From contig JACPGK010000008.1 in the NCBI GenBank assembly GCA_016182495.1, forward strand, positions 2,870 to 66,869: a stretch of 64,000 bases of DNA, in the 5' to 3' direction. The DNA is from Candidatus Kerfeldbacteria bacterium. GTDB taxonomy: Bacteria; Patescibacteriota; Patescibacteriia; UBA9570. Positions 942-55,790 of the stretch are shown piece after piece; the stretch's first letter is position 1, and every line of letters begins with the position of its first letter. Under the pieces are notes generated by a model. It saw only the letters and a list, made by a program, of their open reading frames with translations, made no database searches and had not been told where the DNA came from. The translations under genes and the position numbers were made by a program.

Positions 942-2804
942 TTATCCAGCCGTTTGAAACGGAATCTTTTTCGAATAGGCTCCGCCCAAATAGTTGCCAA
1001 CCGCGCGTACCTGCACTTTGTAGTGTTTACCGGATTTTAAGCCTTTTACTTTAGTATTGGTTTTAGTAGTGGTGACGGTTTTGGTTACCGTACTACCACG
1101 CTTCACTTGTACAACATAATGATCACTGCCGGTCACTGCATTCCAGCGCACCTTGGCCGTTTTGGCAGTAACATTGGATACTGTAACGCCCTTCACCTTG
1201 TTGGGAGCGGTTAACATTGAGCCAGAAGGCAAATAGGCTGTGGTGCCGTTATCTTGGACTGAAACTCCACCAATCAATTCAGCTTTTTGGCCATCAGGAT
1301 TAATGACATCAACATTCTGAAAACCACCAGCAGCGCCAGCTAATAAGGTGCCAGTAATCGTTGTTTCAGTAACAGCAACATCCGTTAATGGTACACCACC
1401 AATAACAGCCATAGCTCCGTCAACAAACCCTGTTCCAGTAATAGTAATAGCGGTATCCGCTGTATCATCAACTGCTTCCGGAGATACCATAGCGATATCA
1501 GGCGGTGTATCTGTACTAATGGTAATAGCGTTAGCTAGAGTAGTTTTTTTACCACTTGGAGTAGTAACCCGTAAACCATATTCACCGTCAGTTAAACTAT
1601 AGGGCACGCTAATCTGAATTTCGGTACTACTTACCACAATAGTGGCATCAGCATCAATTACTGTTTGTACGGCGGTACTGCTTGATCCGGGAATAAATTG
1701 GGCAGTTGAGTTGGAGACAAAATCTGATCCGTACACATACACTAATCCACCAGGGTAAGCAATGGCTTGACCCGGCCCACCATAAAAACTAGCCGTGCCG
1801 GTGACCGGTAACGCATCGGGACAAGTTTGGCCTTCTGGTAAGGTAACCCACAGCACAAAATAGCCAGCATTCAAAAATATACCGCTGTTAATGCCCGCCA
1901 CACCCGAGGCAACGTAATCGTTCGAGCCAAATGGTGTGATGTACCAATCACCAGCACTGGTCACTTGCACCTGTTGTGATCGATATAAATACAGTTGCGC
2001 TGGGGTAGCAATTTCTCCACCACTATCCCCACCACAGCTAGCACTGGCTTGTGCGGTTTGTGAATCAAACGACGGTTTCACCGTGATATCATTAGTAACC
2101 CGAACATCATCAATGAGCCAACCTCGGAAACCATTGTATTTTTGGTCAACGGTTTCAAAATAAAATTTCAGTTGAATAGTGTTGCCAACATAGTCTGATA
2201 AATCGGCTTGGGTATGAATCCACTGGCCCACTTGGCCTAAACCACCCGAACTAAATGGCTTCCAGGATTCACCATCTACATCATTTAATGGATTCAAATT
2301 AACCACTGCACTCCAAGTTGCACCACCATCTGTGGTGATGTACACCGACATTAAATCGTATTGATCAACATCAACGCCTTCAATTTCCCACCAATTCCAA
2401 AATGTGAGCGTGGCATTTTCAGAAGTTGTTAAATCAATCGCTGGACTAATTAACTCACCATCGTTGGCTAAATTTGACCAACCGCCATTTTTGGCATCTT
2501 GATCAGCTAAAGTCCAATCCCCTAAAAAGGTTCCATCACTGGCGCTACCATACCACCACACACCCTCACCTGAATAGGCATTAGGTAAAAAACCAAAATC
2601 TGGTAACGATACTAGGGCTGGATTGATATCATCAGCAATGGAAATATTTTCCGGATTGGTTTGTTGATGCCACAAACCAGTGGCTGTCCACGAACCATCA
2701 TCGATTTCCATTTCATCAAAAAATAATGTACCAGCTTGGGCTGGTTGCTTAAACGCCAATACAGCTAAGCCTATAACCAGGCCCAGCCAAACTTGTTTTT
2801 TCAT
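942..2804 (-). CDS. secreted cell-surface protein with IPT/TIG-like Ig repeats and a C-terminal fibronectin type III domain
   Basis: It has a cleavable signal peptide (MKKQVWLGLVIGLAVLAFKQPAQA). The middle segments (ITITGTGFVDGAMAVIGGVPLTDVAVTETTITGTL..., IQISVPYSLTDGEYGLRVTTPSGKKTT) resemble IPT/TIG beta-sandwiches. The C-terminus (VSNVTAKTAKVRWNAVTGSDHYVVQVKRGS...YKVQVRAVGN) is FN3-like. A GGAG lies 7 nt upstream of the ATG. Confidence 0.6.
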   Translation of the reverse strand: MKKQVWLGLVIGLAVLAFKQPAQAGTLFFDEMEIDDGSWTATGLWHQQTNPENISIADDINPALVSLPDFGFLPNAYSGEGVWWYGSASDGTFLGDWTLADQDAKNGGWSNLANDGELISPAIDLTTSENATLTFWNWWEIEGVDVDQYDLMSVYITTDGGATWSAVVNLNPLNDVDGESWKPFSSGGLGQVGQWIHTQADLSDYVGNTIQLKFYFETVDQKYNGFRGWLIDDVRVTNDITVKPSFDSQTAQASASCGGDSGGEIATPAQLYLYRSQQVQVTSAGDWYITPFGSNDYVASGVAGINSGIFLNAGYFVLWVTLPEGQTCPDALPVTGTASFYGGPGQAIAYPGGLVYVYGSDFVSNSTAQFIPGSSSTAVQTVIDADATIVVSSTEIQISVPYSLTDGEYGLRVTTPSGKKTTLANAITISTDTPPDIAMVSPEAVDDTADTAITITGTGFVDGAMAVIGGVPLTDVAVTETTITGTLLAGAAGGFQNVDVINPDGQKAELIGGVSVQDNGTTAYLPSGSMLTAPNKVKGVTVSNVTAKTAKVRWNAVTGSDHYVVQVKRGSTVTKTVTTTKTNTKVKGLKSGKHYKVQVRAVGNYLGGAYSKKIPFQTAG

Positions 2805-2866: not shown

Positions 2867-3417
2867 CTACCAGGGAGTAGCTTTAAAATGCCAACGATAG
2901 CCTAGTCGATTAACCACCACATGCAAAATAATCCCTAAACTTAGCACAATCAGCCAAGTAAGAGCATTCACCGGATAAAACCAATGAATCAGCAAAGTTG
3001 GGCCAATTAAATAATCCACTTGATCGAATGGAAACCACAACGCTCCGGGAGCAATTCGAAAACGTCGCTTAAAAAAACTTTTTATCAGATCGCTCAATAG
3101 AGCGGCGGCTCCAAAAGCAAATCCAAACCACCACGGAAATAAACGATAATCATACACCCCTAACTCTAAAAACTTTGGAAAAATGATGGCTAACAATTTT
3201 TGAATGCTAAACAAAGCCCCACCAAACAAAGTGCCAACCAATAATCCACGCCAAGTTTTATTGCTGCCAAAAATCGGCTGGCCAAACAATTGGTGCCCAC
3301 CATCAATTGGTTGAGCTAACCACTGCCAATGTTTGGCAATTAACACTGGCGACATATTGGCTAATCCAGCTGGCAGAAAAAACCATACTAGTCGCCCAAT
3401 CCATTCAAATACTTCCA

Positions 3418-3418
<1 letters not shown>
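2867..3418 (-). CDS. CTP-dependent cytidylyltransferase-family integral membrane protein (CdsA/CarS-like, short form)
   Basis: It is polytopic. The KTWRG motif and the C-terminal block LIKSFFKRRFRIAPGALWFPFDQVDY resemble the phosphatidate cytidylyltransferase / CDP-archaeol synthase (DUF46) signature region. At 183 aa it is much shorter than bacterial CdsA. Confidence 0.45.
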
Positions 3419-7702: not shown

Positions 7703-8734
7703 TTAAAATTGATCAATAAACCTAAAATCTCCGCCCATAAATAATCGAATATCATCAATGTTATACTTCAACATCGCCAAACGCATTAAACCCATACCAA
7801 AGGCAAAGCCAGTATACTTGCCTGGTTCATACCCGGCCGAAGCGAACACTGTAGGATGAATCAAACCGCAGCCGAGCATTTCTACCCAGCCAGTGTATTT
7901 ACAAACAGCACAACCTTGGCCAGCACAGTGTGTACAAGAACAATCGGCTTCAAAGCCTGGCTCAACATACGGAAAATACCCCGGCCGTAATCGCACCTGC
8001 ACATCGCTTTGTAACACTCGCGACATGGCCGTTTTCAAAAAATAGGTTAAGTTACCCAGTGAAATATTCTCATCCACCACAAAACCTTCCATTTGGTAAA
8101 AAGTATGTTCATGCGAGGCATCAATCGCTTCATTACGAAACGCCCGACCCGGTACCACCGCGCGTAGTGGCGGAGTGTATTGCTGCATCAAACGAACTTG
8201 CATGTTAGAAGTATGAGTACGCAATACTCGCTTTACACCCTGATCGTCACCGCTCACATAAAAGGTATCTTGCAAATCTCTGGCGGGATGATGCGGCGGG
8301 ATGTTTAAATATTCAAAACAGTACAACTCGTTTTCTAATTCGTTGCCTTCCATCACCATGAACCCCATGGCATAAAAAATATCAACTAATTCTTCTTGTA
8401 ATTGACGTAACGGGTGTACATGTCCCACCGTTGGCCAAATGCCAGGCAACGTGACATCTGGCACTAGGGTAGTGCTGGCATGGTGATGCTGATTTTGCCA
8501 GGCACTGAACAGTTGTTGCAGCTCTTGTTTGGCATTATTAGCCAAAGCTCCCAGTTGACGCTTATGTTCAACATTATCAAGATGTTGGATTGATCGTAAT
8601 ATTTTCACCAATTCACCCTGTTTGCGACCAAAATAATGATCACGCAATTGCTCAAACTGTTCAACAGTTTCTGTACTTGCCAGCGCTGTACGACCATGAT
8701 TGATTAAGGCTTGAATTTGGTCAGCAGTGATCAT
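7703..8734 (-). CDS. pheS: phenylalanine--tRNA ligase alpha subunit
   Basis: Class II aaRS motifs are present (FRNEAIDASHEHTFYQMEG, GWVEMLGCGLIHP, GFAFGMGLMRLAM). The track ORF begins at a TTG at 8863. I place the start at the internal ATG (MITADQIQ...) at about 8734, which overlaps the upstream gene's stop as ATGA. Confidence 0.88.
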   Translation of the reverse strand: MITADQIQALINHGRTALASTETVEQFEQLRDHYFGRKQGELVKILRSIQHLDNVEHKRQLGALANNAKQELQQLFSAWQNQHHHASTTLVPDVTLPGIWPTVGHVHPLRQLQEELVDIFYAMGFMVMEGNELENELYCFEYLNIPPHHPARDLQDTFYVSGDDQGVKRVLRTHTSNMQVRLMQQYTPPLRAVVPGRAFRNEAIDASHEHTFYQMEGFVVDENISLGNLTYFLKTAMSRVLQSDVQVRLRPGYFPYVEPGFEADCSCTHCAGQGCAVCKYTGWVEMLGCGLIHPTVFASAGYEPGKYTGFAFGMGLMRLAMLKYNIDDIRLFMGGDFRFIDQF

Positions 8735-9120
8735 GCTGCCTGTTTTGTTAAATACAAGGCTTCCACCGCCACCAAGCCTAACACTAATACCATGGCCGAC
8801 CACCAAGTAAACAGCTGGTTCGCCAATAAGGCTAACGACACTACTACGCTTACGGTGAACCAAACCGCTTGACGAATGGCTGGCGTAATATATTGAAAAG
8901 CCATACTACTGTGTTGTCGCAGACGGGCTAATACTAAACGTACTCCTAGGCCAAGCAAAGTAAAGCTGCTTACCAGGGCAATCATTAAGGCTAGGTAAAA
9001 TACGGCCAGACCGATTGCGCCACTAGTTTGTGGATTGATGTACAATACAACTGTCAGCCAAGCTAGCCAACTCATGGTACTGACAATACCTAACACAGCC
9101 AAAAAATGACTGAATTTCAT
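8731..9120 (-). CDS. small hypothetical membrane protein (4 predicted TM helices)
   Basis: It is 129 aa and wholly hydrophobic-helical. It lies between the giant gene and pheS with a start/stop overlap, so co-transcription is likely. Confidence 0.5.
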   Translation of the reverse strand: MKFSHFLAVLGIVSTMSWLAWLTVVLYINPQTSGAIGLAVFYLALMIALVSSFTLLGLGVRLVLARLRQHSSMAFQYITPAIRQAVWFTVSVVVSLALLANQLFTWWSAMVLVLGLVAVEALYLTKQAA

Positions 9121-9171: not shown

Positions 9172-12100
9172 TTAACCCTTTGCTATTTGTTCTACCCGAA
9201 TATTAACGTAGCGTAATTGTTTTCCAGAAATTTTATAGTTAGCATCTTCTATCTGCGGTGTAATTACTTCTCCTGCTAATACCCCATAACTGGTGAGCGA
9301 TACCTCTACTCGGCTGCCAGGAGCTGGTAATGGGCCAGCCATTTTAACAATTTCAACATCACCGTCGCGATCTAACCGATAGCGCACGCCATGAACATCG
9401 TAGCGACCATTACCGGCACTAATTAAGGCTTTCATTTGGCTAACAAAGTTATCATAACCGCGTAGCCATAACGAACGTTCAGCTGCCACCCCGGTTAATG
9501 TTTCTACCCCAACCGTTTCAGCTGCCGTACCAGGTTCAGCCTCTTCTGCCCCAGTTCGTGTAACTGCTTCATCACCGCCACCGCCAGTGCCACGTGTTCC
9601 ATCAAATACACCTTCATCAATTAGTACTCGTTCGCCAGATGTAGAGACTGCTACTCCATCAGCATCACTGCCAGTTGATGTAGCCTCTAACGGCCTGGCG
9701 GCAATGGCGGCATCAAATTGAGCTCCAGCCTGCTGTGATAATGCCGCTCTACTGCTTGCATCAAGTGTCCAGGGATTGTTAGTTATTTGAGCAGCAATGT
9801 ACGCTGCACGATTTACACCATCTACCAATAGTTCGCCGGTAATTGGCCTAGTGGGTGATGCGGCAGCTGTTTCAACCACAGTTGATTGCACGGGCCGTAA
9901 TGGCACCTGTTCAAAGGCTTTATCAAACGCTTCGCCATTATTTAGGAGTTGATGAGTTTGAGCATCGTAAATGAGCAATGTTGGATCATCAGCCGTACCG
10001 CCAACAATAATAGTATATTTATCCGGTTGCATTACCCACACCTGTTTATGAGTAGCCGGGTCGATAATATGAACCTGTTTACCATCAACCGTGATGGTGG
10101 TTTTGGTCAGTATTTCTAACACTTTCTGCTCGATATTTTTACCGCCATTAGTCCAATCCGGTTTAGCCCGTAGTTGATCGCGCACTACGTGCCAAAAACC
10201 TTCTCTGCGGTGCACGGTATAATCTTGCCATTGCTCGTTAGACGGTACGACCGCTGAAGCAACTGGTGGCGCTACTGATTCTGCTGGTGGCGTGACCGGT
10301 GCGGTGACTGGGGTTACGGTTTCAGCTACCGCTGCTGGCACAGTACGAACAGCCACCGGTGCAGCTGTGGCAGCGGCTGGTTCTGCTGGCGGTGTCGTAG
10401 AAGCAGGGGCAACTGGTGGCGCAACAGTCTCGGCCACCGGTGTAACACTGGCTGGCGTAGCTGCCGCTACTGCCGGCGCTTCGGTAGTACTGCTAGCGGT
10501 TGGTGGGGTAGACGGTTGTTCTACAGGGGCGGCAGGCGCTGGCGTTGTTGGGGCTGGAGCAGCCGGTTCGGGGGAAAACCAAAATTTTCCAGCTGTACTT
10601 AACCAATCTTTCACGTGTTCACCCACCAAATCCATCACATCTGGGCCAACTATGGCGCCGACTGCTCCTCCGAGTATTTGAGACCACCGAATAACAGCAC
10701 GATCAGTTCTTTGTAGGTGACCGAATCTTTTTACAGCCTTTGCTAAATCATCATTCAGTTGATTCATTACAGCCACGCCTGCATCGCTAGCCAAACTAGC
10801 CTGGCTGATTTGTTCAACCAGCAAGCGATCAACCTGTTCACGCAAGGCAGCATATTCTTTGGGATGATCAGCTTGCCACATAGCATCAGCCAATTGAGCC
10901 CGAGCTCGAGTAAGATATCTACGACCGGTATCAGTGTCTGTAATGGATTTTAATTGATCAATTGAAACATATCGTCGGCGTTGCTCACCTGCCAGCATAG
11001 CTTTAGCCGCCACCTCGCCTAATTTCATGGTACCGATACCTAGCACAACTTCCCGCAGTATTGGAACTGATCGGCCAATATAGCCAGCCACGGTAAACGC
11101 AGCCGCGGTAGTAACTTGTTCATTTAACCGTTGGCCACCACGAAATAAAGATGCTTGAGTGACTTTATCAAAAAGTTTAGTAACGATACCGCCGTTTTGA
11201 CGGATGGTTTGTTCTTTAAGCGTCGCATCGTTTTGTTTAACGGTATATAAAGCCGCCACGCCAGCCGCTCGCGCTGCACGGCTAGCCTGTAAATCAGCAG
11301 CCATCTCAGCAGATACTCTATCACTATTCCCTAGCTGCCTAATTTGTTCATCGATCGTTTCATTAGTAAGGCGCTGGTGCCAAGCTGCCCCGTCGGCAAT
11401 AGCTTGTTGTAACGCGGCTTGCTGTTCTGGTGTATTACGTTTCAGTAGTTCATCTCGACACTCAACAATTCTTAGCTCTAAACGGTCATTTTCACTAGCT
11501 AAACGATCAATCTCGTGCTGTTTAGCCACGGCCAGTTCAACAGAGAGATTTTCCAGTATATCGCGCAAATTGATACCAACATCATCACTCTGTTTTACTA
11601 TAGCATTCATTAATTTCTGCTGGCGTTGATCAATGGCGCGATCGGCCTGATACAACCAGCCAGCCCGGGCGCCAATTACCGCCGCTACACCTAGTACCGG
11701 GTTAGCCGTTAACGCCGTGGTGCCGGCACCAACCCCAATAATAGTGCCGATTTTGCCTAAAAATTTTCCTAATTTTATGATCTTGCTATCTTTGGCCCGC
11801 TCTTGAGCAGTAGCTATTTCTCGAATAGCCTGGCGTTGTTTTAATAAGGCCGCAGTGACTACGGTACGATCTTCTAGCCCCAAACGAGCTAATAAATCAA
11901 CCACAACGGTACTGGTTGATAAACGATCCGGGGTAGTGAGAGTTAATTGAACTAAATCGGTCAGTAGCCGAGTGATTGTTCCATCATTGGCAATTTCAAG
12001 GCTGCTGGCATATTTTATTTTGGATAATTTTTCATTAATTATGCCACTAGTGCCATAGGATTGTCTCACTTTTTGCTCATTCAACATTCGGCGCACCAAT

Positions 12101-15100
12101 TCAGGTGGCACGGTAGCTACACCTATCGTAGGAGGTTTGAATGATGGTGCCGGCGGCGTTGGCGCTGGAGAGACTGATTCTGGTGGCGTTGGCGCTGGAA
12201 GTGTTGGAGTTGGCTCTGAAGCGGCGGTATTTGGAGTAGCGGAGCCGACCTGGTGACGTTGAGTCCAAAGTTCTTCGATTTTTACACGAATAGCTTCAGG
12301 TTGAGAGCCATCAGGTAAACTAATACGAGCATCGTTCCATAAACTTATGCCTGCGGGTGTAGTGCGATCTGGTACAAGTGGTATCGCGGCGGTGGCAGGC
12401 ACAGTTGGTTCTGTAGCAACAGGTGCGGCTGACATTGCTACTTCAGCAGCATCTAAGGCTGGACTTGTAGGTACTGCTAGTATTGCCTGGTCGGTATCGC
12501 TACTACCTAAGTTTTCATCGAGCATGGTTTGTAATGGCGCGACTTCCGTTGCTTTTGATGCATGATCCGTCATTTGATAGATCTTTGCTAAACTAGCAGC
12601 TAACTTGGCTACTTTAGTTGAGTCAATTTGGCCAGGATTTTTGCCTTTACGCCGTTCAGTGACTAACACATTTAAAGCGGCTAGTTTTTGTGTATTAGGT
12701 AATTTGGCATTAATTCGTTCTATCGTATCAAGATACCTTTCCAATATTGTCGCTACCGCAGCCTGATCGCCAGAAAAAGCAGCACCTAATGCTTTGGTTA
12801 AGGCGGTGATCAATTCAACCGCCCGAACTTCTTTACCGCCAGCCTCTCTAAAATAGGTTTTCATGCCTTCAAGTACTGCTCCACGGCGTTTCTTTAAAGC
12901 AGTATCAACCTTTGTTTCTTCAGCATCAGCTACGGCTGCTGCAGTTAAAGTTGCCTCTGTATCATCGCCAGAGCTAGCTGCCGGAGTTGCTACGGATTCA
13001 TCGGCCGCTGATATAATACCAAATTGAGGAGCTGTCTCGGCAGCAGCGACGGGTTCGGGAGCCATCTTTTGTTTAGCTTCGGCAACTACTGCCGGTAAAT
13101 CTGCTACTGTAGCTGTGCCACCAAATACTCGCTCGTTATTAATAAAAGCAACCACTGTTATAGTGCCATCTGTGTGCGAGGTGTCGCTGACTGATAAACG
13201 TAATACATTGTTGTCACCTTGGTAGTGAAAATCAACTTGGTGTCGCTGGCCGCCAGTATCATCTATTCGGCCAAACGTATCAGGCGTAACTTTTACAATT
13301 GGAGACAATGTATCTAAATGCATACTAATCTCTCGATCATCATCTAGCACTACTGTTTCATCACTAGGCCGATATAATCGTATTCCAGGAATGTTGTAGT
13401 TACGCACTTCTGCATTAACCTCTGGAATGGACGGTTGCCGTTCAATTGGTGCACTTACCCGGCTGGTTGTTTCTTGTAAGTGTTTAACAATAATTACTTG
13501 CAGGGTAATATTATCGCCGCTGCCACTAGACCGACCCTGAATAGTTCTGGAATATAAATTAGCGATATCATTAACCCCCGGGCCTACTCGAACAATAAAA
13601 GGAGCTGTAGAATTATTCCGATCATAAGCTAATTTTATAACATCATTACGAATAGCTTCGACGTCACCAGGATGTTTAGCCACAATTAGCTCAATTTCAT
13701 ATTCACTCACCAAATCAGTAATAGCACCATCAGAACCAAGCAACATCACATCACCTACTGCGGCTTGAAACGAATCAAGCTCGTGTTCTGATGGACGATT
13801 CACATAATAACCACTCGTTCTTGATACTACATTATTGCCAACCCATCCATCTGACGTGTGAACTTTATGACTATAATATAATTTGGCAGCTTCGATGGGC
13901 GATAAATCATCCGCAGCCACTTTGGATTGCAAATCTTCAAACACGGCATTATGAGGCCGAGATGTGCCTGGACGATATACTGCACCACCACGAATAGTAA
14001 CCAACTTAGCATCACCAGCCCAACCATAATTAACTTGGCCGGTAGGCTGTAACTTTAAAAACACCGGGCAAGCATAGCCACCTGGTACAGTTTGTTTGAT
14101 AGTATCATGAACAGCCGTTAAGGCTTGATCAAGCGTACCATCATTCTGAAAAGCTTTCATGCTAGCATTTACACCTGCCAGAGCCGAAGCTCGGCCAGCA
14201 TCACTGCCGCCGGCGCCATCAATCACGCCGCTGAATACTGCACCATCCCGGCCAACTCCAGCAAACATAACATCTTCGTTGGTTTGATATTTTGAACCAG
14301 CTCCACCATTTTCGGTACTACCAGCCAAATGGACATAATCGGTTACAAATTTTAATTCCCCGAACTGTTTATCGGTAATAGCGCGGGCATCGCCTGGGTG
14401 AAATACTTCAAAACCAGTTGGCACTGGTTCTCCAGTTTCCACTGCTGGTGTTGGCTCGACGCCACTGGCAGGTATTGCTGCAGCTTCGGGTTCAGCCAGG
14501 CCTAGGGTAGTAGCATCCTCAATAACAGTTGCCCGAGCTACATAATCGGCTATCCAGCCAGCTGGCACCAAATTTTCCCAAAGTCGAACAACAGCTGGAT
14601 CAATTTCGTTATACTCGCCTCCAACTTTTTGACAAGCTTCACGCACTTTGCGTTTACATTGCTCTTGATCTTCAAGCTGAAGATTGTTTAAAAATCTCTG
14701 GAACGCTTGGCGTACTTCTTGAAAAGCTGGCAACCTAAAATAACTATATGGATGGTGTAAATCAGCTTGATAACCACGCTGATAATGTTCAATTTCCCGT
14801 TCAGTTAATTCTTCATGCGACGGTATTGGTATGTCAGACACATATTCACTAACGCCTAATGTCGCAAATTGACTAGTATGATCATAACCATCGGCTAATT
14901 GTTTATTAAATAGAGTACGAAAGCCGGTGCACAAATATGATTGCAATGCTGGTACAGTGGCAGCTTTAGTTTGAACATATTGTAGATAGTTACTGTTGGA
15001 CGACCAAGTAATATACGTCTCGCCAAAATAAAGGTTAGTTAAAAAATAGCGCCAGTCTTTTAAGCTCTCTGGCCGATTTTTTATATCAGCCAGTTCCATT

Positions 15101-15834
15101 AATGTATCGTAATCGCGTAACTCTGCTACAGCCTTTGTAACATAGCTTTTAGCATCAGTAATAGCCAGACGATCATTATTATGTGCTAGTGCATTAAAAA
15201 AATATCCTGAATCATCAACAAAACCATTACCTTTGCGGTTCAGTGTTAAACGTTCCGATATACTACCATCAGAAATGTACGTAAAAAACAAAGAAAAGTT
15301 GGCTTCATCGTCAGTTCTATCCACCATTTGGGCGTTAGATAAAAATTCTACTGTATAGTGAGGGACAGTAACATCAATTCTATCCCCATCAGCAAAAATC
15401 AAGTGGCCATCTTCTAGGCCAGTAGCCATGGCTGGTTTGAGTGCTGCTTCCGTTTCTACATCAACCGCCACACCCCGCACGCCAGCTTCAGCGGCGGTTC
15501 CAGCCAGCCGTGCTTGAGCGGCCGTACCAGCTAACTCGGGTACATCTGGATGATCATGAACCACCGCTGCTACAGCAGCCACTTCTTCCCGAACAGCTGC
15601 TACGGTTGCAGTAGCGGCCTCAACTAAAGCCTCGCTTGGTTCTGGTACTGCAGCGACATCAAGCGCTGCCTTATCTGGTTTGTGTGGTAATTCTGCTGGT
15701 GTAGGCACCAAATCAGTGCGGGTTCTGCGCGCACCGGCACCAGAGCGTTTCTTTGGTTTACCTTGTTGTGGATCTCCGGATTCTGCAGATTTTTTAGCCA
15801 TGTTTGCGATGTAAATCTTCCAAAATTGATTCAA
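9172..15834 (-). CDS. giant multidomain protein (2220 aa) with an embedded PPM/PP2C-type Ser/Thr phosphatase domain, coiled coils, Pro/Thr/Ala-rich linkers and an internal hydrophobic hairpin
   Basis: The ORF is uninterrupted for 6.6 kb. The PP2C motifs fall at about residues 475-785 (about nt 13480-14412): TNEDVMF, FSGVIDGAGGSDAG (the DGHGG equivalent), MLLGSDGAITD and GSGDNITLQVIIV (the DN[IV]T motif). Residues about 1351-1395 form a glycine-rich hydrophobic hairpin (IIKLGKFLGKIGTIIGVGAGTTALTANPVLGVAAVIGARAGWLY). Residues about 1400-1680 are long heptad-like helical stretches. Low-complexity P/T/A linkers lie at about residues 445-475, 1200-1240 and 1700-1790. There is no N-terminal signal peptide; the N-terminus is basic (KPKKRSGAGARRTRTD). 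Confidence 0.8.
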   Translation of the reverse strand: MNQFWKIYIANMAKKSAESGDPQQGKPKKRSGAGARRTRTDLVPTPAELPHKPDKAALDVAAVPEPSEALVEAATATVAAVREEVAAVAAVVHDHPDVPELAGTAAQARLAGTAAEAGVRGVAVDVETEAALKPAMATGLEDGHLIFADGDRIDVTVPHYTVEFLSNAQMVDRTDDEANFSLFFTYISDGSISERLTLNRKGNGFVDDSGYFFNALAHNNDRLAITDAKSYVTKAVAELRDYDTLMELADIKNRPESLKDWRYFLTNLYFGETYITWSSNSNYLQYVQTKAATVPALQSYLCTGFRTLFNKQLADGYDHTSQFATLGVSEYVSDIPIPSHEELTEREIEHYQRGYQADLHHPYSYFRLPAFQEVRQAFQRFLNNLQLEDQEQCKRKVREACQKVGGEYNEIDPAVVRLWENLVPAGWIADYVARATVIEDATTLGLAEPEAAAIPASGVEPTPAVETGEPVPTGFEVFHPGDARAITDKQFGELKFVTDYVHLAGSTENGGAGSKYQTNEDVMFAGVGRDGAVFSGVIDGAGGSDAGRASALAGVNASMKAFQNDGTLDQALTAVHDTIKQTVPGGYACPVFLKLQPTGQVNYGWAGDAKLVTIRGGAVYRPGTSRPHNAVFEDLQSKVAADDLSPIEAAKLYYSHKVHTSDGWVGNNVVSRTSGYYVNRPSEHELDSFQAAVGDVMLLGSDGAITDLVSEYEIELIVAKHPGDVEAIRNDVIKLAYDRNNSTAPFIVRVGPGVNDIANLYSRTIQGRSSGSGDNITLQVIIVKHLQETTSRVSAPIERQPSIPEVNAEVRNYNIPGIRLYRPSDETVVLDDDREISMHLDTLSPIVKVTPDTFGRIDDTGGQRHQVDFHYQGDNNVLRLSVSDTSHTDGTITVVAFINNERVFGGTATVADLPAVVAEAKQKMAPEPVAAAETAPQFGIISAADESVATPAASSGDDTEATLTAAAVADAEETKVDTALKKRRGAVLEGMKTYFREAGGKEVRAVELITALTKALGAAFSGDQAAVATILERYLDTIERINAKLPNTQKLAALNVLVTERRKGKNPGQIDSTKVAKLAASLAKIYQMTDHASKATEVAPLQTMLDENLGSSDTDQAILAVPTSPALDAAEVAMSAAPVATEPTVPATAAIPLVPDRTTPAGISLWNDARISLPDGSQPEAIRVKIEELWTQRHQVGSATPNTAASEPTPTLPAPTPPESVSPAPTPPAPSFKPPTIGVATVPPELVRRMLNEQKVRQSYGTSGIINEKLSKIKYASSLEIANDGTITRLLTDLVQLTLTTPDRLSTSTVVVDLLARLGLEDRTVVTAALLKQRQAIREIATAQERAKDSKIIKLGKFLGKIGTIIGVGAGTTALTANPVLGVAAVIGARAGWLYQADRAIDQRQQKLMNAIVKQSDDVGINLRDILENLSVELAVAKQHEIDRLASENDRLELRIVECRDELLKRNTPEQQAALQQAIADGAAWHQRLTNETIDEQIRQLGNSDRVSAEMAADLQASRAARAAGVAALYTVKQNDATLKEQTIRQNGGIVTKLFDKVTQASLFRGGQRLNEQVTTAAAFTVAGYIGRSVPILREVVLGIGTMKLGEVAAKAMLAGEQRRRYVSIDQLKSITDTDTGRRYLTRARAQLADAMWQADHPKEYAALREQVDRLLVEQISQASLASDAGVAVMNQLNDDLAKAVKRFGHLQRTDRAVIRWSQILGGAVGAIVGPDVMDLVGEHVKDWLSTAGKFWFSPEPAAPAPTTPAPAAPVEQPSTPPTASSTTEAPAVAAATPASVTPVAETVAPPVAPASTTPPAEPAAATAAPVAVRTVPAAVAETVTPVTAPVTPPAESVAPPVASAVVPSNEQWQDYTVHRREGFWHVVRDQLRAKPDWTNGGKNIEQKVLEILTKTTITVDGKQVHIIDPATHKQVWVMQPDKYTIIVGGTADDPTLLIYDAQTHQLLNNGEAFDKAFEQVPLRPVQSTVVETAAASPTRPITGELLVDGVNRAAYIAAQITNNPWTLDASSRAALSQQAGAQFDAAIAARPLEATSTGSDADGVAVSTSGERVLIDEGVFDGTRGTGGGGDEAVTRTGAEEAEPGTAAETVGVETLTGVAAERSLWLRGYDNFVSQMKALISAGNGRYDVHGVRYRLDRDGDVEIVKMAGPLPAPGSRVEVSLTSYGVLAGEVITPQIEDANYKISGKQLRYVNIRVEQIAKG

Positions 15835-15985
15835 TGTTAGCTTGATCGATTTTTGTTAACGCTTGATTAATCATGGTGTGCTGTTGGCGCTTCAGTTCAT
15901 CAATTTCTTTTTTAAATTCGGCGTAGATTTGGCGAATGCGCTTAATGCGCTGTTTTGCCTGAGCCGGCGTTAAGGCCTGGGCCAT
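15794..15985 (-). CDS. small basic helical protein (63 aa), hypothetical
   Basis: The sequence (MAQALTPAQAKQRIKRIRQIYAEFKKEIDELKRQQ...) has coiled-coil character. It overlaps the annotated start of the giant gene, so both cannot be fully correct; the giant gene may start at the internal MAKK codon. Confidence 0.35.
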   Translation of the reverse strand: MAQALTPAQAKQRIKRIRQIYAEFKKEIDELKRQQHTMINQALTKIDQANIESILEDLHRKHG

Positions 15986-15993: not shown

Positions 15994-16350
15994 TTAAACA
16001 GTTTTGTTTTGAAGGACGTTAGCTTGCTGCACCGCAGTCAAAAATTCTTTCGCAAACTGTTCTAATCCAGCCGCCGTTTTCTGTGATATATTTTCTATCC
16101 GGCTACTTAAAAATGCTTGCATAGCGGCTGTATTCGGTTGGTCAACATCAATAAATTGAGCCCGAAATTGGTCAGCATCATTACCTGATAATTCCGCCAT
16201 CATTAATAAACCAAGACGGCGAGCAATTTGATCGGATAATTTATTGCGATAAACCAGCAAAGCCTCTTCACCCATGGTTTGTAACCCAGCCTGCTGTATT
16301 AACCAATCAGCAAATTCTTCGATGGTTTGTGTATTATTTGATGTATTCAT
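15994..16350 (-). CDS. hypothetical acidic protein (118 aa)
   Basis: It is a clean ORF co-oriented with and immediately upstream of the giant gene. No motif was recognised. Net charge is acidic. Confidence 0.5.
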   Translation of the reverse strand: MNTSNNTQTIEEFADWLIQQAGLQTMGEEALLVYRNKLSDQIARRLGLLMMAELSGNDADQFRAQFIDVDQPNTAAMQAFLSSRIENISQKTAAGLEQFAKEFLTAVQQANVLQNKTV

Positions 16351-16469: not shown

Positions 16470-16769
16470 TTATGAGCGTTTGATCCATACCACGGGATTT
16501 TGTAATACATTGTTTCGAAAAGAATCATCGACTTGATCAAAATCAATAATATCAACAAAAAATGGAAATGTTGAATTTTCAAATTCTTCTTTTAAACGCA
16601 TGATGTCTTTTTTTTCTATATCGCCCTGAATCCCAATATCGACATCACCAAAATGATCTCGCACGATACTGGACCCAAAAAGAAAAGCTTGAGTGTTAGG
16701 TTTATCAGCAAAATGCTCTTGAATCTTAGTTGTAATAAAATCTAAATATTTCCTTTGTTTTTGAATCAT
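16470..16769 (-). CDS. minimal nucleotidyltransferase (Pol-beta superfamily, MNT-type; orphan toxin-antitoxin component)
   Basis: The G[SG]x(9-13)Dh[DE]h signature is present as FLFGSSIVRDHFGDVDIGIQ. The protein is 99 aa. The gene is AT-rich. Confidence 0.7.
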   Translation of the reverse strand: MIQKQRKYLDFITTKIQEHFADKPNTQAFLFGSSIVRDHFGDVDIGIQGDIEKKDIMRLKEEFENSTFPFFVDIIDFDQVDDSFRNNVLQNPVVWIKRS

Positions 16770-48589: not shown

Positions 48590-49490
48590 TATTTTAATTT
48601 TATCGTGGAATGCCCCGCGGCATATTACCGCCTGCTTAGATAGTTTGATGGCGGCCACTGCCACTGGCGACGTTGAAATTATTGTGATCGATAACGCCTC
48701 AAGTAATCAGCTGGCTCATACACTGCGGCAGCGTTATCCAGCGATCCGCCTAGTGTGTAATCAAACGAATGTTGGCTACGCCTTGGGTAATAATCAAGCT
48801 TACCAATTAGCTCGCGGCCACTATAGTATGTTACTCAATCAAGATACGGTGGTAACGCCAGCAACGGTGCAGCAACTGATCAGCTTTTTAGATAGTCATC
48901 CTGGCTATGCTGCTGTCACACCAGTACTGCGTAATCCTGATGGCAGCCTGCAGTACTACATGCATCGCCGTTGGCCTACAGTTACTGGCCTACTATTGGC
49001 GTTGCTGCATAAACGCTGGCCTCGCTTTCAACCCAAATTGGTGCAACGCTATCTGTATTTAGATCAAACTTGGCAGCAAGATTTTGATATCGAACAAGCG
49101 GCCGGTGCCTGCCTAATGCTGCGACGTTCGGCCATTGTAGAACTAGGTGATTTGTTCGATGTCCGCCATTTTCCACTGTACTATAATGATGTTGATTTAT
49201 GTTATCGCTTAGCCCAACATCATCAAACTATCCGCTGCTTAACCACGGCCTCAATTGTACATGATAAAGGCACTAGTGTGCGCACCCTACCAGGAACCTT
49301 CAATGCGTTAGAATACGCCTACGCCTCGCTGTGGTTTTTTAAAAAGCATGGCCAGTGGTTTGATTTTTGGCTGTTACGTTTAGCCTATATTACCCTATTT
49401 ACTATCCTAGTGTTGTTTCGACCAGCGTATTATAAAGCCTGGCTGACAGCCGTTACCCTGAAGTATTACGGAATATTTCCGGTAAAATGA
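48570..49490 (+). CDS. GT2 glycosyltransferase
   Basis: It carries MSTPRLSILILSWNA...IIVIDNASSN, which is GT-A. The track ORF starts at 48555. Confidence 0.7.
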   Translation: MSTPRLSILILSWNAPRHITACLDSLMAATATGDVEIIVIDNASSNQLAHTLRQRYPAIRLVCNQTNVGYALGNNQAYQLARGHYSMLLNQDTVVTPATVQQLISFLDSHPGYAAVTPVLRNPDGSLQYYMHRRWPTVTGLLLALLHKRWPRFQPKLVQRYLYLDQTWQQDFDIEQAAGACLMLRRSAIVELGDLFDVRHFPLYYNDVDLCYRLAQHHQTIRCLTTASIVHDKGTSVRTLPGTFNALEYAYASLWFFKKHGQWFDFWLLRLAYITLFTILVLFRPAYYKAWLTAVTLKYYGIFPVK

Positions 49491-50947
49491 TATACCACCA
49501 CCAAAGCATCATTAAACTCGGGATGCTTGTGAAAATATTTTTTGGCATATAGTTTAATATCTTCGCGTATATGACGCTGATTGGGTTTGTTATAAATCAG
49601 CCACCCCCCGTGCTGACCAGACCGAGCTAAATCTTTAAAATCCTGTAACGATAAACTCTTATACCCACCTAATTTATACAGCGGCACAGATCGATTGGGC
49701 CAATAATAAAACCGGGGACCTTGAATTAACACAATCTCACCGGGTTGAATTTTTTCAGCCACGGCTTGGTAAACGCTACGCATATCAGGGTAGCCTAATT
49801 GGCTAGCCGATTGATCAGCTAACGCCTGACCAAATACCCCTGGTAAGGTGAGAACGGGACCAGTAATAATAAAGGTAGCCGCTACTACTACAGTTGCTAG
49901 CCAGCGCCAGCGCCGTAACTGTCGCCACACCAGTTGCAGTACCCAATACCAGCCGGTAGCGACCACTACATACACCAACGGCACAATAAAGCCAATGTAC
50001 CGTTGCGCTTCCCAGCGATGACTGAAAAATACAAAGTATGTCAGCACGACAATTACAATCATTGCGGCCATACCAGTAAAACTACGCCCAGTACGACTGA
50101 TCACACACCCCAATACAAACCAACCAGCTGCTAACCACGGCAGTAGCCAACTCGAAAATAACTGGGTAGCATACGTCCAGTGCGGTTGTTCACGTATAAT
50201 GACTGCATCCAGCGGCAAAAATCTCCACCATAGTTGATCAAGTGTGATGAGGCTAGCCACCAGCAGCAGCCCCAACCCAGTGGCCCAAGCCCAGGCAATA
50301 TCTTGAACGTGTCGCTGCCCTAAAAACAGTATGCCCCGACACAGTACATATACTCCGATGCCAGCTAGTAAGGCGAGCGTTAATTCTTTGAACACTAACC
50401 AATGCACTATGGTACTTACTATAAATCCACCCAGGTATATATAGCGCTGCCGACGCTGTGACCAGGCTGACAAAAATTGATACAAGCAATACACCATCAA
50501 AGTACTGAACACAATCACCATGGTATACATTCGCACATAGCGTGATAACCCAATCATCAAAGCATCAAAAGTGACTAACCAACTAGTCAATAGCGCAATC
50601 CACGGATTACCAGTCACTTGGCGCACTATAAAAAAAAGTACTGGTACTAAGGCTACGCCCCACAGCAAGGCTGGTAAGCGAGCGGCGGCTTCATTGATAC
50701 CAAACGCTTGCATACTAACAACCACCTGCCAAATAAATACAGCTGCCCGAGTATAGGGCTTAGCCACAGTAGCATGGTAAAAATCATAGCGGGCGTACTG
50801 GCCAGTGGTGATCAATCCGACGGCTGTTTCGAATTGTAAATACTCATCATGATAAAAATTAACCGCTCCTAAATTGACGGCTCGTAACCATAATGCCAAG
50901 CTGGTAATAAAGATAATGGCCAATGTTTGCCCAGATAGACTTTTCAT
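49466..50947 (-). CDS. GT-C fold membrane glycosyltransferase (ArnT/PMT-like, GT39/GT83-type)
   Basis: It is 493 aa and polytopic. The first extracytoplasmic loop carries the acidic HDE motif (FYHDEYLQFE) characteristic of polyprenyl-P-sugar-dependent GT-C enzymes. Confidence 0.65.
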   Translation of the reverse strand: MKSLSGQTLAIIFITSLALWLRAVNLGAVNFYHDEYLQFETAVGLITTGQYARYDFYHATVAKPYTRAAVFIWQVVVSMQAFGINEAAARLPALLWGVALVPVLFFIVRQVTGNPWIALLTSWLVTFDALMIGLSRYVRMYTMVIVFSTLMVYCLYQFLSAWSQRRQRYIYLGGFIVSTIVHWLVFKELTLALLAGIGVYVLCRGILFLGQRHVQDIAWAWATGLGLLLVASLITLDQLWWRFLPLDAVIIREQPHWTYATQLFSSWLLPWLAAGWFVLGCVISRTGRSFTGMAAMIVIVVLTYFVFFSHRWEAQRYIGFIVPLVYVVVATGWYWVLQLVWRQLRRWRWLATVVVAATFIITGPVLTLPGVFGQALADQSASQLGYPDMRSVYQAVAEKIQPGEIVLIQGPRFYYWPNRSVPLYKLGGYKSLSLQDFKDLARSGQHGGWLIYNKPNQRHIREDIKLYAKKYFHKHPEFNDALVVVYHFTGNIP

Positions 50948-50988: not shown

Positions 50989-52584
50989 ATGGCAAATAAA
51001 GCAGTCATTATTGGATTAGATGGTGCTACCTGGCAATTGTTCGATACTCTGCTGGCCGCTGGCATCATGCCTAATCTACAACGCATCATTCGCGGCGGTA
51101 CGCGGGCGGTGTTACGTTCCACCATGCCGCCGTACACTGCGCCAGCCTGGACCACCTTTGCTACCGGTGTCAACCCAGGCAAGCATGGCTGTTACGATTT
51201 TTTATTACCAACCGACAATTTGGAAAATTTTGATTTATGTAACAGTAACCATATTCGTACTGCTACCATCTATGAATTACTGCATCAGGCTGGCAAACGA
51301 TCAATCTTAATTAATTTACCAAATAGTTATCCGCCCAAGCTATCTAGTCCAACCATTACTGATATGCTGACCGTGGGAGATAATTGCGTTTTTCCGGAAA
51401 CTTTAAAAGCTCGCTATCCTGAATTACGGCGTTATCGGCTAGCACCCGATGAATCACTACAGGTCAAAGGTAAGCTCACCGAATATATTGATGATATTAT
51501 TGCGGTAGAGCGCGATCATATGGCTGTTGTCAAAACGTTGTGGCAGCATGAACCCTGGGATATGTTTTTTTATCTGTTTTCATCAACTGATTGGATTTCA
51601 CATGCCATGTTTAATCAGTTGTTGGAATTGCATCCTAAGGCTATGGAATTGTTCAAATTTATTGATGACCAGTTGGGTTGGTTTTGTGATCAGTTGCCGC
51701 CTGATGCCAATTTATACATTTTGTCCGATCATGGTTTTAAAGTGTACCACCATACTTTTTACTTTAATAAATGGCTTGAACAACAAGGCTACCTGGTTAC
51801 TCGCCCGGCGGCGGCTGATAGTTTTCACCAAAATATTAGCAAACAAGATGATCAACGCAGCAGTTTACAACAGCATAAGCGCTGGCATATTGGTATTAAT
51901 CAAACTACCTTGCACTGGCTAAGCCAGGTAAAACCAATTGAACGAGCGGCTCGCTGGCTATACCATCATGTTGCCAAACCGTTTTTACCAATCCGGTTTA
52001 GTTTGGATGTGACGATTGATTTCAGTAAAACCAAAGTCTGTTTTCCCAAAGGTCGTACCATGACCGCCATTTACATTAATGATGGTCGTAAATATCGTCA
52101 CGGACAACCCTTCACTGAAGCTGATTACTTGCAGTTGCGCGCGGCTGTGGCTAAAAAATTAGCCGCTGTCAAAGGGCCAGATGGCCAACCAGTTACTCCG
52201 CGAGTGTATACCAAAGAAGAAATTTATGGCACAACAGTACCAGAGCGTTGCCCCGATTTATTTTATGAATTTGGTGACTATTGGTTTGTCGGTCAATTTC
52301 ATTCTAGTGAATTATTTGTTAAGGAATTATCCAATAAACATGACCCGTTCGGTATGTTTGTAGCCTATGGGCCCACCATTAAAGCTGGCGCTCAATTACC
52401 CGAGCAACCGATCGCTGCGGTCACAGCGACAGTACTGCATGATTTGCAACAACCACTCCCACAGTATTTCGATGCCAAGGTGATGGATATTTTTACCCAA
52501 CCACAGCCAGTGCGTTACAGTAATCGAGCATTGGTGAATGAACATCAGGCTGTAACTGAACTAATCAATGAATTAGTCGTATGA
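50989..52584 (+). CDS. alkaline-phosphatase-superfamily protein, type I phosphodiesterase/nucleotide pyrophosphatase-like (paralog 1 of 3)
   Basis: The N-terminus VIIGLDGATW supplies the metal-ligand Asp. The candidate nucleophile is the Thr/Ser of T(A/V)PAWTTFATG. SDHGF and TDWISH are metal-ligand blocks. The protein is 531 aa. Confidence 0.75.
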   Translation: MANKAVIIGLDGATWQLFDTLLAAGIMPNLQRIIRGGTRAVLRSTMPPYTAPAWTTFATGVNPGKHGCYDFLLPTDNLENFDLCNSNHIRTATIYELLHQAGKRSILINLPNSYPPKLSSPTITDMLTVGDNCVFPETLKARYPELRRYRLAPDESLQVKGKLTEYIDDIIAVERDHMAVVKTLWQHEPWDMFFYLFSSTDWISHAMFNQLLELHPKAMELFKFIDDQLGWFCDQLPPDANLYILSDHGFKVYHHTFYFNKWLEQQGYLVTRPAAADSFHQNISKQDDQRSSLQQHKRWHIGINQTTLHWLSQVKPIERAARWLYHHVAKPFLPIRFSLDVTIDFSKTKVCFPKGRTMTAIYINDGRKYRHGQPFTEADYLQLRAAVAKKLAAVKGPDGQPVTPRVYTKEEIYGTTVPERCPDLFYEFGDYWFVGQFHSSELFVKELSNKHDPFGMFVAYGPTIKAGAQLPEQPIAAVTATVLHDLQQPLPQYFDAKVMDIFTQPQPVRYSNRALVNEHQAVTELINELVV

Positions 52585-54188
52585 CCAAAGCTGTTATTAT
52601 TGGTTTAGATGGTGCTACTTGGCGCTTACTTGATCCCCTGCTGCAGCAAGGTCGTTTACCAAATTTGCAGTATCTGATTGAGCATGGTGTTCGTCGCACG
52701 CTAATTTCAACCCGCCCCCCAGTAACGGTACCGGCTTGGACCACTTTTGCCACTGGAGTGCACCCTGGTAAACATGGCTGTTACGATTTTTTTCTACCGG
52801 GAAAAAGTATCCGCGACTTTCGACCAGCCACTAGCCAAGAAATTAAAGTACCAACGTTATACGAATTACTGCACGATCAAGGCAAAAAAGTAATTTTAAT
52901 GAACCTGCCCAATTCGTATCCACCGCGCGTACCAGCGATGACTATGGTATCCGATTTCATGACCATTGGCGATCAAGCCGTTTTTCCCGCCAGCCTGTTA
53001 GAAAAATATCCGGTGCTTAAACGTTATCGCTTATCGCCCGATGAGCGCCTAAAATTAACGACCGATAACGATGCATATATTCAACACATTATTGATTTAG
53101 AAAAAGATCGTTTAGCTGGCATGAAGGAATTATTTATTCATGAACCTTGGGATATATTCTTCTTTTTGTTTTCCTCAACTGATTGGGTATCGCATTTAGT
53201 ATTTTACGATATGCTGACACAGCATCATCCAACCGCCTTGCAAGTGTTTGATGTGGTAGATGAATTTTTTGGTTGGCTGCGACAACAATTACCAGCCGAA
53301 GCTAATTTATATATTATGTCCGATCACGGTTTTACCTATTATACTGAACTGTTTTATATTAATCGCTGGCTGGAACAACAAGGCTACTTGGTGACTCGAT
53401 CTGGTGCCGGACAATTAGAACAAGATGCTACCGCTCGGCGGCGCAATTTGGCAGCGGCGCGAAGCCAGCGCAGGCGTTGGCGAATTTCAAAACGATGGCT
53501 GAATATATTATTTTTTCATCCAGTGATTGAACGAACCATGAAGTGGTGTTACCATCATATTGTGAAACCATTTTTTCCGGTGCATATCACTGTTGATGTG
53601 GGCATTGATTTAGATAAAACCAAAGTGTGTTTTCCGCGCGGTAGTATGTTACAAACCTTGTACCTCAACTATCAAGGTAATTTTAAAGAGGGCCTCATTA
53701 CCGATCGGACAGAATACGATCGTGTACGGCAAGAGGTGAAAGAAAAATTAGAAGCTCTGTACACACCGTCTGGTAAGCGCGTCACCGAGCATGTCTATAC
53801 CAAAGAAGAATTGTACGGTAACCAGCCACCAACGCCATCGCCGGATTTACATTGTGTCACCAAAGATGTTTGGATTGTTGGCCATTTACATTCAAAAGCT
53901 ATTTTTGAACAGGCAATATCGAATAAACACGACGAATTTGGAATTTTTATCGCCTATGGGCCGGATATCGTGGCTGGTGAACAACTGGCCGAAGCCAATA
54001 TTGCTGATATCGCGCCTACCATTTTGCATCAATTCAACAGTTTGATTCCAAGCTATACCGATGGTCGGGTGCTGTTGGATATTTTTCAAAACCAGGCTGA
54101 ACCAGCCCAGCGACCAGTGCGTTTGAGTCAAATTGAACGGTCTGAAAAAACTCAACTCAATGAATTAGTCGACAATTTGGTAATTTAA
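52581..54188 (+). CDS. alkaline-phosphatase-superfamily protein, phosphodiesterase/NPP-like (paralog 2 of 3)
   Basis: It is roughly half identical by eye to paralog 1 across the whole length. The same IGLDGATW / PAWTTF / NLPNSYPP / HEPWD / STDWVSH / SDHGF blocks are present. Its start overlaps the stop of paralog 1. Confidence 0.75.
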   Translation: MTKAVIIGLDGATWRLLDPLLQQGRLPNLQYLIEHGVRRTLISTRPPVTVPAWTTFATGVHPGKHGCYDFFLPGKSIRDFRPATSQEIKVPTLYELLHDQGKKVILMNLPNSYPPRVPAMTMVSDFMTIGDQAVFPASLLEKYPVLKRYRLSPDERLKLTTDNDAYIQHIIDLEKDRLAGMKELFIHEPWDIFFFLFSSTDWVSHLVFYDMLTQHHPTALQVFDVVDEFFGWLRQQLPAEANLYIMSDHGFTYYTELFYINRWLEQQGYLVTRSGAGQLEQDATARRRNLAAARSQRRRWRISKRWLNILFFHPVIERTMKWCYHHIVKPFFPVHITVDVGIDLDKTKVCFPRGSMLQTLYLNYQGNFKEGLITDRTEYDRVRQEVKEKLEALYTPSGKRVTEHVYTKEELYGNQPPTPSPDLHCVTKDVWIVGHLHSKAIFEQAISNKHDEFGIFIAYGPDIVAGEQLAEANIADIAPTILHQFNSLIPSYTDGRVLLDIFQNQAEPAQRPVRLSQIERSEKTQLNELVDNLVI

Positions 54189-54190
54189 TT

Positions 54191-55786: not shown

Positions 55787-55790
55787 TTAT

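Follow-up and report, generated by a model that had tools for sequence, protein, structure and literature searches.

A stretch of 64,000 nucleotides (nt) from Candidatus Kerfeldbacteria bacterium (assembly GCA_016182495.1, contig JACPGK010000008.1, positions 2,870-66,869 of the forward strand), referred to here as the window, carries on its minus strand a giant gene whose product contains a divergent phosphatase domain of the PP2C/PPM superfamily. The domain is homologous to bacterial PP2Cs of the Stp1/PstP type, as judged from sequence profiles and from its predicted fold, and it belongs to a distinct PP2C clade that is the sole recognisable module of giant orphan proteins in the candidate phyla radiation (CPR); it is a known enzyme unusually packaged, not a new system. 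The reading favoured here, which is given about an even chance of being correct, is that the protein would act as an intracellular, metal-dependent PPM Ser/Thr phosphatase, carried on a giant, fast-evolving and lineage-specific scaffold and possibly membrane-tethered. Residues are numbered from the TTG codon at 15834, positions in the annotated protein being lower by 11, and the features that matter most are the following.

9172..15801, minus strand: giant gene of 2,209 amino acids (aa), from an ATG at 15801 to a stop codon at 9172-9174; the mechanically called open reading frame (ORF) reaches the TTG at 15834.
13468..14370, minus strand: divergent PP2C/PPM phosphatase domain, residues ~489-789, from phmmer, the family profile, AlphaFold2 (AF2) with Foldseek, and an alignment to PstP.
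13519..13620, minus strand: ~34 residues (739-772, RNNSTAPF...) peculiar to the subfamily, inserted after the last helix and ahead of the final GDNIT strand.

The reading frame, described as unbroken in the original prediction, is open throughout from 9172 to 15834 on the minus strand, with 2,220 codons counted from the first TTG. The start codon is likely the ATG at 15801, giving 2,209 aa; this start is favoured because gene callers choose it and because it is overlapped by 8 nt by the stop of an upstream 63-aa gene. A database entry for the same product begins at this ATG ('MAG: hypothetical protein HYV33_01635 [Candidatus Kerfeldbacteria bacterium]', 2,209 aa; MAG, metagenome-assembled genome). 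Sequencing errors or frameshifts had been named as a danger to the ORF, and two further assemblies (L001 and L002, runs SRR12113422 and SRR12113390, both from groundwater samples) were found to carry the same DNA, 100% identical and gap-free along the full 6,663 nt, which makes a frameshift or chimeric artefact unlikely. The giant ORF is real and intact, and self-BLAST found no internal repeats in its product.

Word-indexed homology searches with the whole protein or with its PP2C segment returned the protein itself or nothing, and when the protein, whole and in eight segments, was run against the Pfam and NCBIfam libraries, a weak match of residues 470-800 to the NCBIfam Stp1_PP2C model (E=9.7e-8, 31.8 bits) stood alone above noise. 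Relatives emerged from a phmmer search with residues 140-960 against 1.84 billion representative sequences, which recovered 84 proteins at E<=0.001, each matching residues ~489-789; the subfamily as defined here consists of these 84 clusters at 50% identity. A family profile (A1) built from 42 of the 84 proteins matched S. aureus Stp1 (E=1.6e-31) and M. tuberculosis PstP (E=1.5e-24) in the PDB, together with T. elongatus tPphA, S. agalactiae STP, P. aeruginosa PppA, and PP2Cs of plants and humans (E 1e-31 to 1e-17). Taken singly, 32 of the 42 members match the Pfam PP2C model (PF00481), and 13 touch the Pfam SpoIIE model. The concern that the PP2C motifs might occur only in this genome is therefore removed, the domain being common to 84 cluster representatives.

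The predicted structure points the same way. An AF2 model of residues 455-960, computed with an alignment containing 12 family homologues, has a predicted local distance difference test score (pLDDT) of 80-95 over the PP2C core. A Foldseek search of the PDB with this model gave 141 matches at E<=0.001, headed by 2pk0, 1txo, 6jkv and 2y09 at a probability of 1.00, and target-normalised template-modelling scores were 0.74-0.80 against S. agalactiae STP, PstP, PppA and tPphA. Fold, profile homology and metal ligands thus all place the domain within the PPM superfamily; the internal PP2C domain of the original prediction is confirmed by the family profile and the modelled fold, and since every metal-binding residue is kept, its activity is plausible.

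The motifs on which that prediction was built were all located (TNED at 518-521, GVIDGAGG at 536-543, LLGSDG at 698-703 and GDNITLQVIIV at 773-783). The predicted metal ligands are D521, D539/G540, D608, D702 and D774/N775, which align, respectively, to D25, D38/G39, D118, D191 and D229/N230 of PstP. In the family alignments, the conserved Asp positions lie in NED, DGAGG, GDxK, SDG and GDN motifs, and D52, D70, D139, D233, D305 and N306 (alignment numbering) are invariant or at least 90% conserved. The predicted ligand set for metals 1 to 3 is complete, and on this sequence evidence the domain would be an active metal-dependent phosphatase, with altered kinetics or an altered substrate possible. 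The ~34-residue insertion is recognised from the family consensus (RNNSxxPFxI...GDNIT) and from the gap that it opens against PstP, and it causes local alignments to Stp1 to stop early. An insertion specific to the giant, modelled at low confidence, lies in the flap region (AF2 model residues 203-227).

The named long members of the family all come from CPR lineages, namely Kerfeldbacteria, Magasanikbacteria and Parcubacteria, and reach 3,180 aa in length. They include P0026 from Magasanikbacteria (2,533 aa), P0019 from Parcubacteria (2,940 aa) and P0045 from Kerfeldbacteria (1,250 aa), and these three, like P0002 below, are annotated as hypothetical. No Pfam domain besides PP2C was found in the long members scanned, bar one weak sub-threshold match in P0026, and among PP2C-bearing family members the non-catalytic parts of the giant have counterparts only in P0002, discussed below, and marginally in P0045. 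Single-domain members of ~300 aa occur as stand-alone genes in MAGs labelled Delta- or Gammaproteobacteria, and no kinase or FHA neighbours were found around the small members examined. One 'Deltaproteobacteria' MAG (GCA_015228875.1) holds at least two single-domain paralogues on different contigs (L004 and L016), and the small member P0086 occurs in run SRR12113422, as does the giant itself. The architecture had been put forward as undescribed, and the literature searched contains no account of it; its uniqueness has nevertheless to be qualified, as giants of this PP2C subfamily recur in CPR and phosphatase-bearing giants have been mentioned before, with Ser/Thr phosphatase domains listed among the domains of some giant bacterial genes (bioRxiv 10.1101/2023.11.21.568195). 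Nothing on PP2C in CPR was found in the literature searched.

One family member, P0002 (1,853 aa, 'MAG: bacterium', isolate C24_metabat.bin.218, locus L003), is a true syntenic orthologue of the giant. In annotated-protein numbering, the two align over 444-908 at 31% identity and over 1212-1973 at 25%, with the first ~440 residues, 909-1211 and the last ~235 residues of the giant left unaligned, and they have three blocks in common: the PP2C domain, a helical block with hydrophobic segments, and a C-terminal alpha/beta domain. The order of genes in the window (118-aa gene, 63-aa gene, giant, 129-aa gene, pheS, pheT, gyrB, CarS-like gene) is matched in L003 (111-aa gene, 73-aa gene, giant, 143-aa gene, pheS, pheT, gyrB, CarS-like gene), so that the check on conservation and synteny proposed at the outset finds the gene kept in the same order in a related genome. 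Between the two loci, pheS is 62%, pheT 46% and gyrB 76% identical, compared with 25-31% for the giant in its two alignable blocks, and the giant thus evolves much faster than its surroundings. A further orthologue with the full architecture did not turn up in two scans of Joint Genome Institute (JGI) metagenomes. The neighbouring features are as follows.

15994..16350, minus strand: 118-aa gene, kept upstream of the orthologue (28% identity).
15794..15985, minus strand: gene for a 63-aa helical protein, kept upstream of the orthologue (38% identity).
8731..9120, minus strand: gene for a 129-aa membrane protein with four hydrophobic helices (49% identity at the orthologous locus).
16386-16358, upstream of the 118-aa gene: promoter-like site, from a scan that did not rise above shuffled expectation.

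The 129-aa gene separates the giant from pheS, with whose start it shares 4 nt; this overlap and the one of 8 nt at the giant's own start point to translational coupling of the small genes to the giant and to pheS. The description of the giant as heading a run of co-oriented genes is weakened by the conserved 118-aa and 63-aa genes that precede it on the same strand. Constitutive expression could be supposed from the operon layout; the scan for promoters and terminators did not exceed shuffled expectation and serves as a pointer only. Around other family members, counterparts of the 118-, 63- and 129-aa neighbours were found in L003 only. The wider neighbourhood in the window comprises pheST, gyrB and ATP synthase genes, with no secretion-system genes adjacent to the giant. 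Over the whole 64 kb, nothing scores above the gathering threshold of an Rfam family, and this search accordingly gave no tRNA, rRNA or riboswitch (ARAGORN was not run). The CarS-like gene directly after gyrB (2867-3418, minus strand) encodes 183 aa of the CDP-archaeol synthase family (PF01864, E 1.9e-19), and its counterpart in the syntenic locus (L003 13506-14036) is 48% identical. Upstream of the cluster, a 99-aa Polbeta/MNT-type nucleotidyltransferase (PF18765, E 8.5e-7) is encoded at 16470-16769 on the minus strand; no HEPN partner was recognised for it, and it is absent from L003.

Outside the PP2C block, the protein has no recognisable relatives in Pfam, NCBIfam or PDB sequences, and it can be mapped mainly by composition, predicted secondary structure and comparison with P0002.

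15418..15801, minus strand: basic N-terminus, then low-complexity sequence rich in Ala/Val/Glu, residues 12-139, by composition.
14425..15417, minus strand: aromatic-rich N-terminal orphan region, residues 140-470, with empty phmmer, Pfam, NCBIfam and PDB searches.
13063..13239, minus strand: small module of four strands and a helix, residues ~866-924, AF2 pLDDT ~65-79.
12088..12495, minus strand: two Pro/Thr/Ala/Ser (PTAS)-rich linkers, residues 1114-1166 and 1188-1249, by composition.
10594..12105, minus strand: mostly helical block, residues ~1244-1747, by predicted secondary structure and ~25-29% identity with the orthologue.
11644..11766, minus strand: hairpin-like segment, residues ~1357-1397, hydrophobic and rich in Gly/Ala, basic at either flank.
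10993..11112, minus strand: second weakly hydrophobic Gly/Ala-rich segment, residues ~1575-1614, with PILRxV..GI kept in the orthologue.
10621..10698, minus strand: third weakly hydrophobic, Gly-rich segment, residues ~1713-1738, by hydropathy.
10225..10617, minus strand: long Pro/Ala/Val/Thr-rich linker, residues 1740-1870, predicted to be disordered from composition and AF2 secondary structure.
9865..10239, minus strand: conserved C-terminal alpha/beta domain, residues ~1866-1990, by conservation with the orthologue.
9175..9864, minus strand: non-conserved C-terminal tail, residues 1991-2220, which includes GRYDVHGVRYRLDRDGDVEIVK and does not align to the orthologue.

As had been noted from the sequence, the N-terminus is basic (9 Lys/Arg against 4 Asp/Glu in the first 40 residues) and, by eye, shows no hydrophobic signal-like stretch. 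Residues 140-470 have no relatives by exhaustive phmmer, Pfam, NCBIfam or PDB sequence searches and do not align even to P0002. For residues 800-960, exhaustive phmmer found P0002 as the one related protein, and the beta-sheet and helix module is kept in it, the alignment of the two proteins extending to residue ~919. The low-complexity linkers of the original prediction are likewise present (residues 924-955, 1114-1166, 1188-1249 and 1740-1870), and so is the C-terminal segment singled out there (GRYDVHGVRYRLDRDGDVEIVK, GRYDVHGV..., residues 2143-2164). In a PDB sequence search, neither the two terminal regions nor the helical block found a match. The C-terminal alpha/beta domain is the best-conserved block outside PP2C in comparison with the orthologue, at 43-50% identity in 30-residue windows, and is marginally detectable in P0045, another Kerfeldbacteria protein. 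By eye, this domain (YTVHRREGFWHVVRDQL) looked LysM-like, an assignment that was set aside as Pfam gives it no support. A second AF2 run, on residues 1222-2040 with the orthologue alone as alignment, gave at low confidence a secondary structure that is helical over 1244-1747, disordered over 1748-1867 and alpha/beta over 1868-1980. The region previously claimed to hold about 300 residues of heptad-like helix is probably helical, to judge from this model, although the claim of long coiled coils is not supported: in a crude test that scored the best a/d register in 35-residue windows, two short windows lay marginally above the 99.5th percentile of shuffled sequences, close to the null.

The hydrophobic hairpin fared better in its existence than in its character. 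The segment is present at ~1357-1397 (KFLGKIGTIIGVGAGTTALTANPVLGVAAVIGARAGWLY), with a GxGxG...P...G.R pattern, a turn Pro and basic flanks that are kept in P0002; it is only weakly hydrophobic and scores poorly as a transmembrane element, with uncharged arms of ~16 and ~10 residues. Among the other family members, 7 of the 28 with 550 aa or more and 3 of the 56 short ones have comparable Gly/Ala-rich segments C-terminal to PP2C, and the hydrophobic segment is therefore recurrent, not universal. Inspection by eye of the giant and of ~90 family members revealed no N-terminus resembling a signal peptide. Searches by tblastn of phage and plasmid collections, and a scan of viral contigs, likewise yielded no match, and the idea that the gene derives from a phage tape-measure protein or a mobile element was dropped for that reason. 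Of the roles first proposed, neither a divisome or cytoskeletal one nor secretion is favoured by anything tested; signal peptide, adjacent secretion genes and phage or plasmid relatives are all missing.

Under the favoured intracellular reading, the PP2C domain would bind two or three Mn2+/Mg2+ ions through D521, D539/G540, D608, D702 and D774 and would hydrolyse phosphoserine and phosphothreonine on proteins, while the flanking orphan modules and PTAS-rich linkers may act as spacers or docking surfaces that fix its location and choice of substrate. The three Gly/Ala-rich, basic-flanked segments, too short and too polar for classical transmembrane helices, could hold the protein at the inner membrane face as a monotopic or peripheral anchor, so that the PP2C and C-terminal alpha/beta domains would both remain cytoplasmic. 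The gene would be co-transcribed with the two upstream small genes, the downstream gene for the small membrane protein, and pheST. An intracellular location is suggested by the lack of signal-peptide-like N-termini across the family; the tether by the hairpin and the PILRxV..GI motif kept in the orthologue, by the recurrence of such segments in 7 of 28 long members and by the basic flanks; and the operon by the 8-nt and 4-nt overlaps and by the same gene order in L003.

Several observations weigh against this reading. By its own sequence alone, whole or in segments, the giant matches no Pfam PP2C model, and its 31.8 bits fail the 230-bit cut-off of the Stp1/IreP equivalog (NCBIfam NF033484). 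At the active site, the general-acid His of DGxGGH is replaced by Ser544, with DGAGGS found family-wide, and the phosphate-binding Arg (R20 in PstP) aligns to Gln517, not to an Arg, so that catalysis could be slow or the substrate could differ. The Hanks kinase motif [HY][RC]DxKxxN is absent from all frames of the 64 kb window, leaving no evident partner. As to the membrane, the Kyte-Doolittle 19-mer maximum is 1.49 over the whole giant and 1.36 at the hairpin, and the best Hessa-type dG sum is +5.2, compared with -2.1 to +2.7 for the four transmembrane helices of the neighbouring 129-aa protein; the segments are not confident transmembrane helices, and a monotopic or peripheral anchor and buried helices of a soluble bundle are equally possible. 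Homology cover of the C-terminal half came from the word-indexed search, a pattern scan and comparison with PP2C-bearing proteins only, and the AF2 run on residues 1222-2040 reached a pLDDT of 34.6 and is unusable as a three-dimensional model.

The losses at the active site bear most directly on the idea that the domain is a catalytically weak or dead PP2C-fold module, serving to bind phosphoproteins or as a structural part of the scaffold. This is judged improbable: the His and the aligned Arg are lost, and the domain has diverged strongly from curated PP2C models, but the five acidic ligands and the Asn of the DN motif are invariant or nearly so over 84 diverged clusters, pointing to selection for catalysis. 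Both missing residues are common among PPMs without being universal, several active bacterial PPMs likewise lack the His, and a conserved Lys515 stands two residues upstream of Gln517 in the family-specific motif GGPxSKYxxNED. The original prediction that all diagnostic PPM motifs are present therefore holds for the metal-binding Asp residues and is otherwise overstated. The hydrophobic segments and what follows them raise another alternative, a PstP-like receptor topology, in which the PP2C half would lie inside, an odd number of passes within 1357-1738 would place the linker and C-terminal domain outside, and residues 1740-1870 with the alpha/beta domain would form a wall-spanning stalk and a sensor or adhesin. 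The order of PP2C, hydrophobic segments, Pro/Thr/Ala-rich linker and conserved C-terminal domain fits such a layout; Pro-rich stalks are typical of extracytoplasmic regions, and no other non-catalytic block is as well conserved as the C-terminal domain. This topology is nonetheless considered quite unlikely, as no segment is transmembrane-like in hydrophobicity (the uncharged arms span 10-16 residues), the first hairpin is basic on both flanks, suggesting that both its ends lie on the same side, and the sequence N-terminal to the hydrophobic block has similar PTAS-rich linkers as well.

It is also conceivable, though unlikely, that the protein is an exported host-interaction factor that leaves the cell by a Sec-independent route, inserts its hairpin into a host membrane in the manner of Inc proteins or translocons, and dephosphorylates host proteins. 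Its mostly orphan sequence, its rapid evolution relative to its neighbours (25-31% identity against 62% for pheS, 46% for pheT and 76% for gyrB), the want of a cognate kinase within the 64 kb window, and the recurrence of the hydrophobic hairpin in long CPR paralogues are consistent with export, as is the fact that the named long members all belong to CPR lineages, regarded as episymbionts (PMC7906910). Against this stand the lack of a signal peptide and of adjacent secretion genes, the placement of the gene in a housekeeping operon with pheST and gyrB, the occurrence of single-domain subfamily members as ordinary stand-alone genes in Gram-negative MAGs, the lack of phage, plasmid or viral relatives, and the poor quality of the hairpin as a transmembrane candidate. 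A bolder version, in which a PP2C clade of the (Parcubacteria-group) CPR's own has repeatedly been built into fast-evolving, hairpin-bearing giants that act as contact-dependent, Sec-independent effectors or interface organisers, insert into the membrane of the host or of the symbiont-host contact and erase Ser/Thr phosphorylation there, is speculative and judged improbable; if it were true, the hairpin-PP2C giants of CPR would constitute a new class of episymbiosis factor.

Comparison with known systems supports the assignment to PPM phosphatases and sets the giant apart in most other respects; the protein as a whole recalls PstP or SpoIIE in no more than the broad concept of joining a PPM domain to modules for localisation. 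With PP2Cs of the eukaryote-like Ser/Thr phosphatase (eSTP) type, such as Stp1/STP, PstP, tPphA and PppA, it shares the fold and the NED, DGxGG, GDS/A-K/R, SDG and DN motifs, and with Stp1 the flap sequence HPxxNxITxxxG. It differs from them in its N-terminal motif (GGPxSKYxxNED in place of GxxRxxNED), in the Ser that stands for the His of DGMGGH, in the ~34 residues added before the last strand, and in the position of the domain midway in a 2,209-aa protein, the eSTP enzymes being of ~250 aa; unlike at eSTP loci, no Hanks kinase, FHA, rodA or pbpA genes are adjacent to it. In score, in size and, over the 64 kb window, in kinase linkage, it falls outside the Stp1/IreP equivalog. The succession of catalytic domain, hydrophobic element, Pro-rich segment and C-terminal domain recalls mycobacterial PstP, which is ~500 aa long with one clear transmembrane helix and an extracellular domain; in the giant, by contrast, weak Gly/Ala-rich hairpins lie ~570 residues downstream of the catalytic domain. 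SpoIIE and RsbU/RsbP similarly combine a PPM domain with large non-catalytic regions through which its localisation or activation is controlled, although their PPM domain is C-terminal and their partners are anti-sigma-factor antagonists, and no such partner genes or domains occur at the giant locus. Very long ORFs largely without detectable domains are also known from Omnitrophota and Actinobacteria (bioRxiv 10.1101/2023.11.21.568195); compared by description, those giants are far larger, multi-enzymatic and linked to predation and cell-wall degradation, whereas a single enzymatic domain is found here.

The interest of the finding lies in its setting. Ser/Thr phosphosignalling in CPR/Patescibacteria is essentially unstudied, giant 'dark' proteins of these lineages are candidates for host interaction, and one giant PP2C gene is found here within a conserved operon with essential genes, where its PP2C domain offers an assayable enzymatic handle on an otherwise opaque protein. 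The distinct subfamily to which this domain belongs escapes Pfam in the giant, while most other members match Pfam PP2C weakly, and the subfamily profile could improve the annotation of members without a Pfam assignment or named hypothetical. The present evidence reveals no new biochemical principle.

Elsewhere in the window, an 810-aa protein (58530-60962, minus strand) has a C-terminal CDP-alcohol phosphatidyltransferase (residues 610-734) as its sole recognised domain, its N-terminal ~600 residues being without assignment, and a 620-aa protein (942-2804, minus strand) combines InhA-like MAM, TIG/IPT and fibronectin type III domains and is probably a surface or secreted protein. Three tandem paralogues of ~531-535 aa at 50989-55786 on the plus strand match Pfam Phosphodiest (E 1e-31 to 1e-37), the type I phosphodiesterase / nucleotide pyrophosphatase family. 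Preceded by a PMT-like glycosyltransferase (49466-50947, minus strand) and followed by a 522-aa ORF without a Pfam match (55692-57260, plus strand), they could form a cell-envelope or teichoic-acid-type modification cluster.

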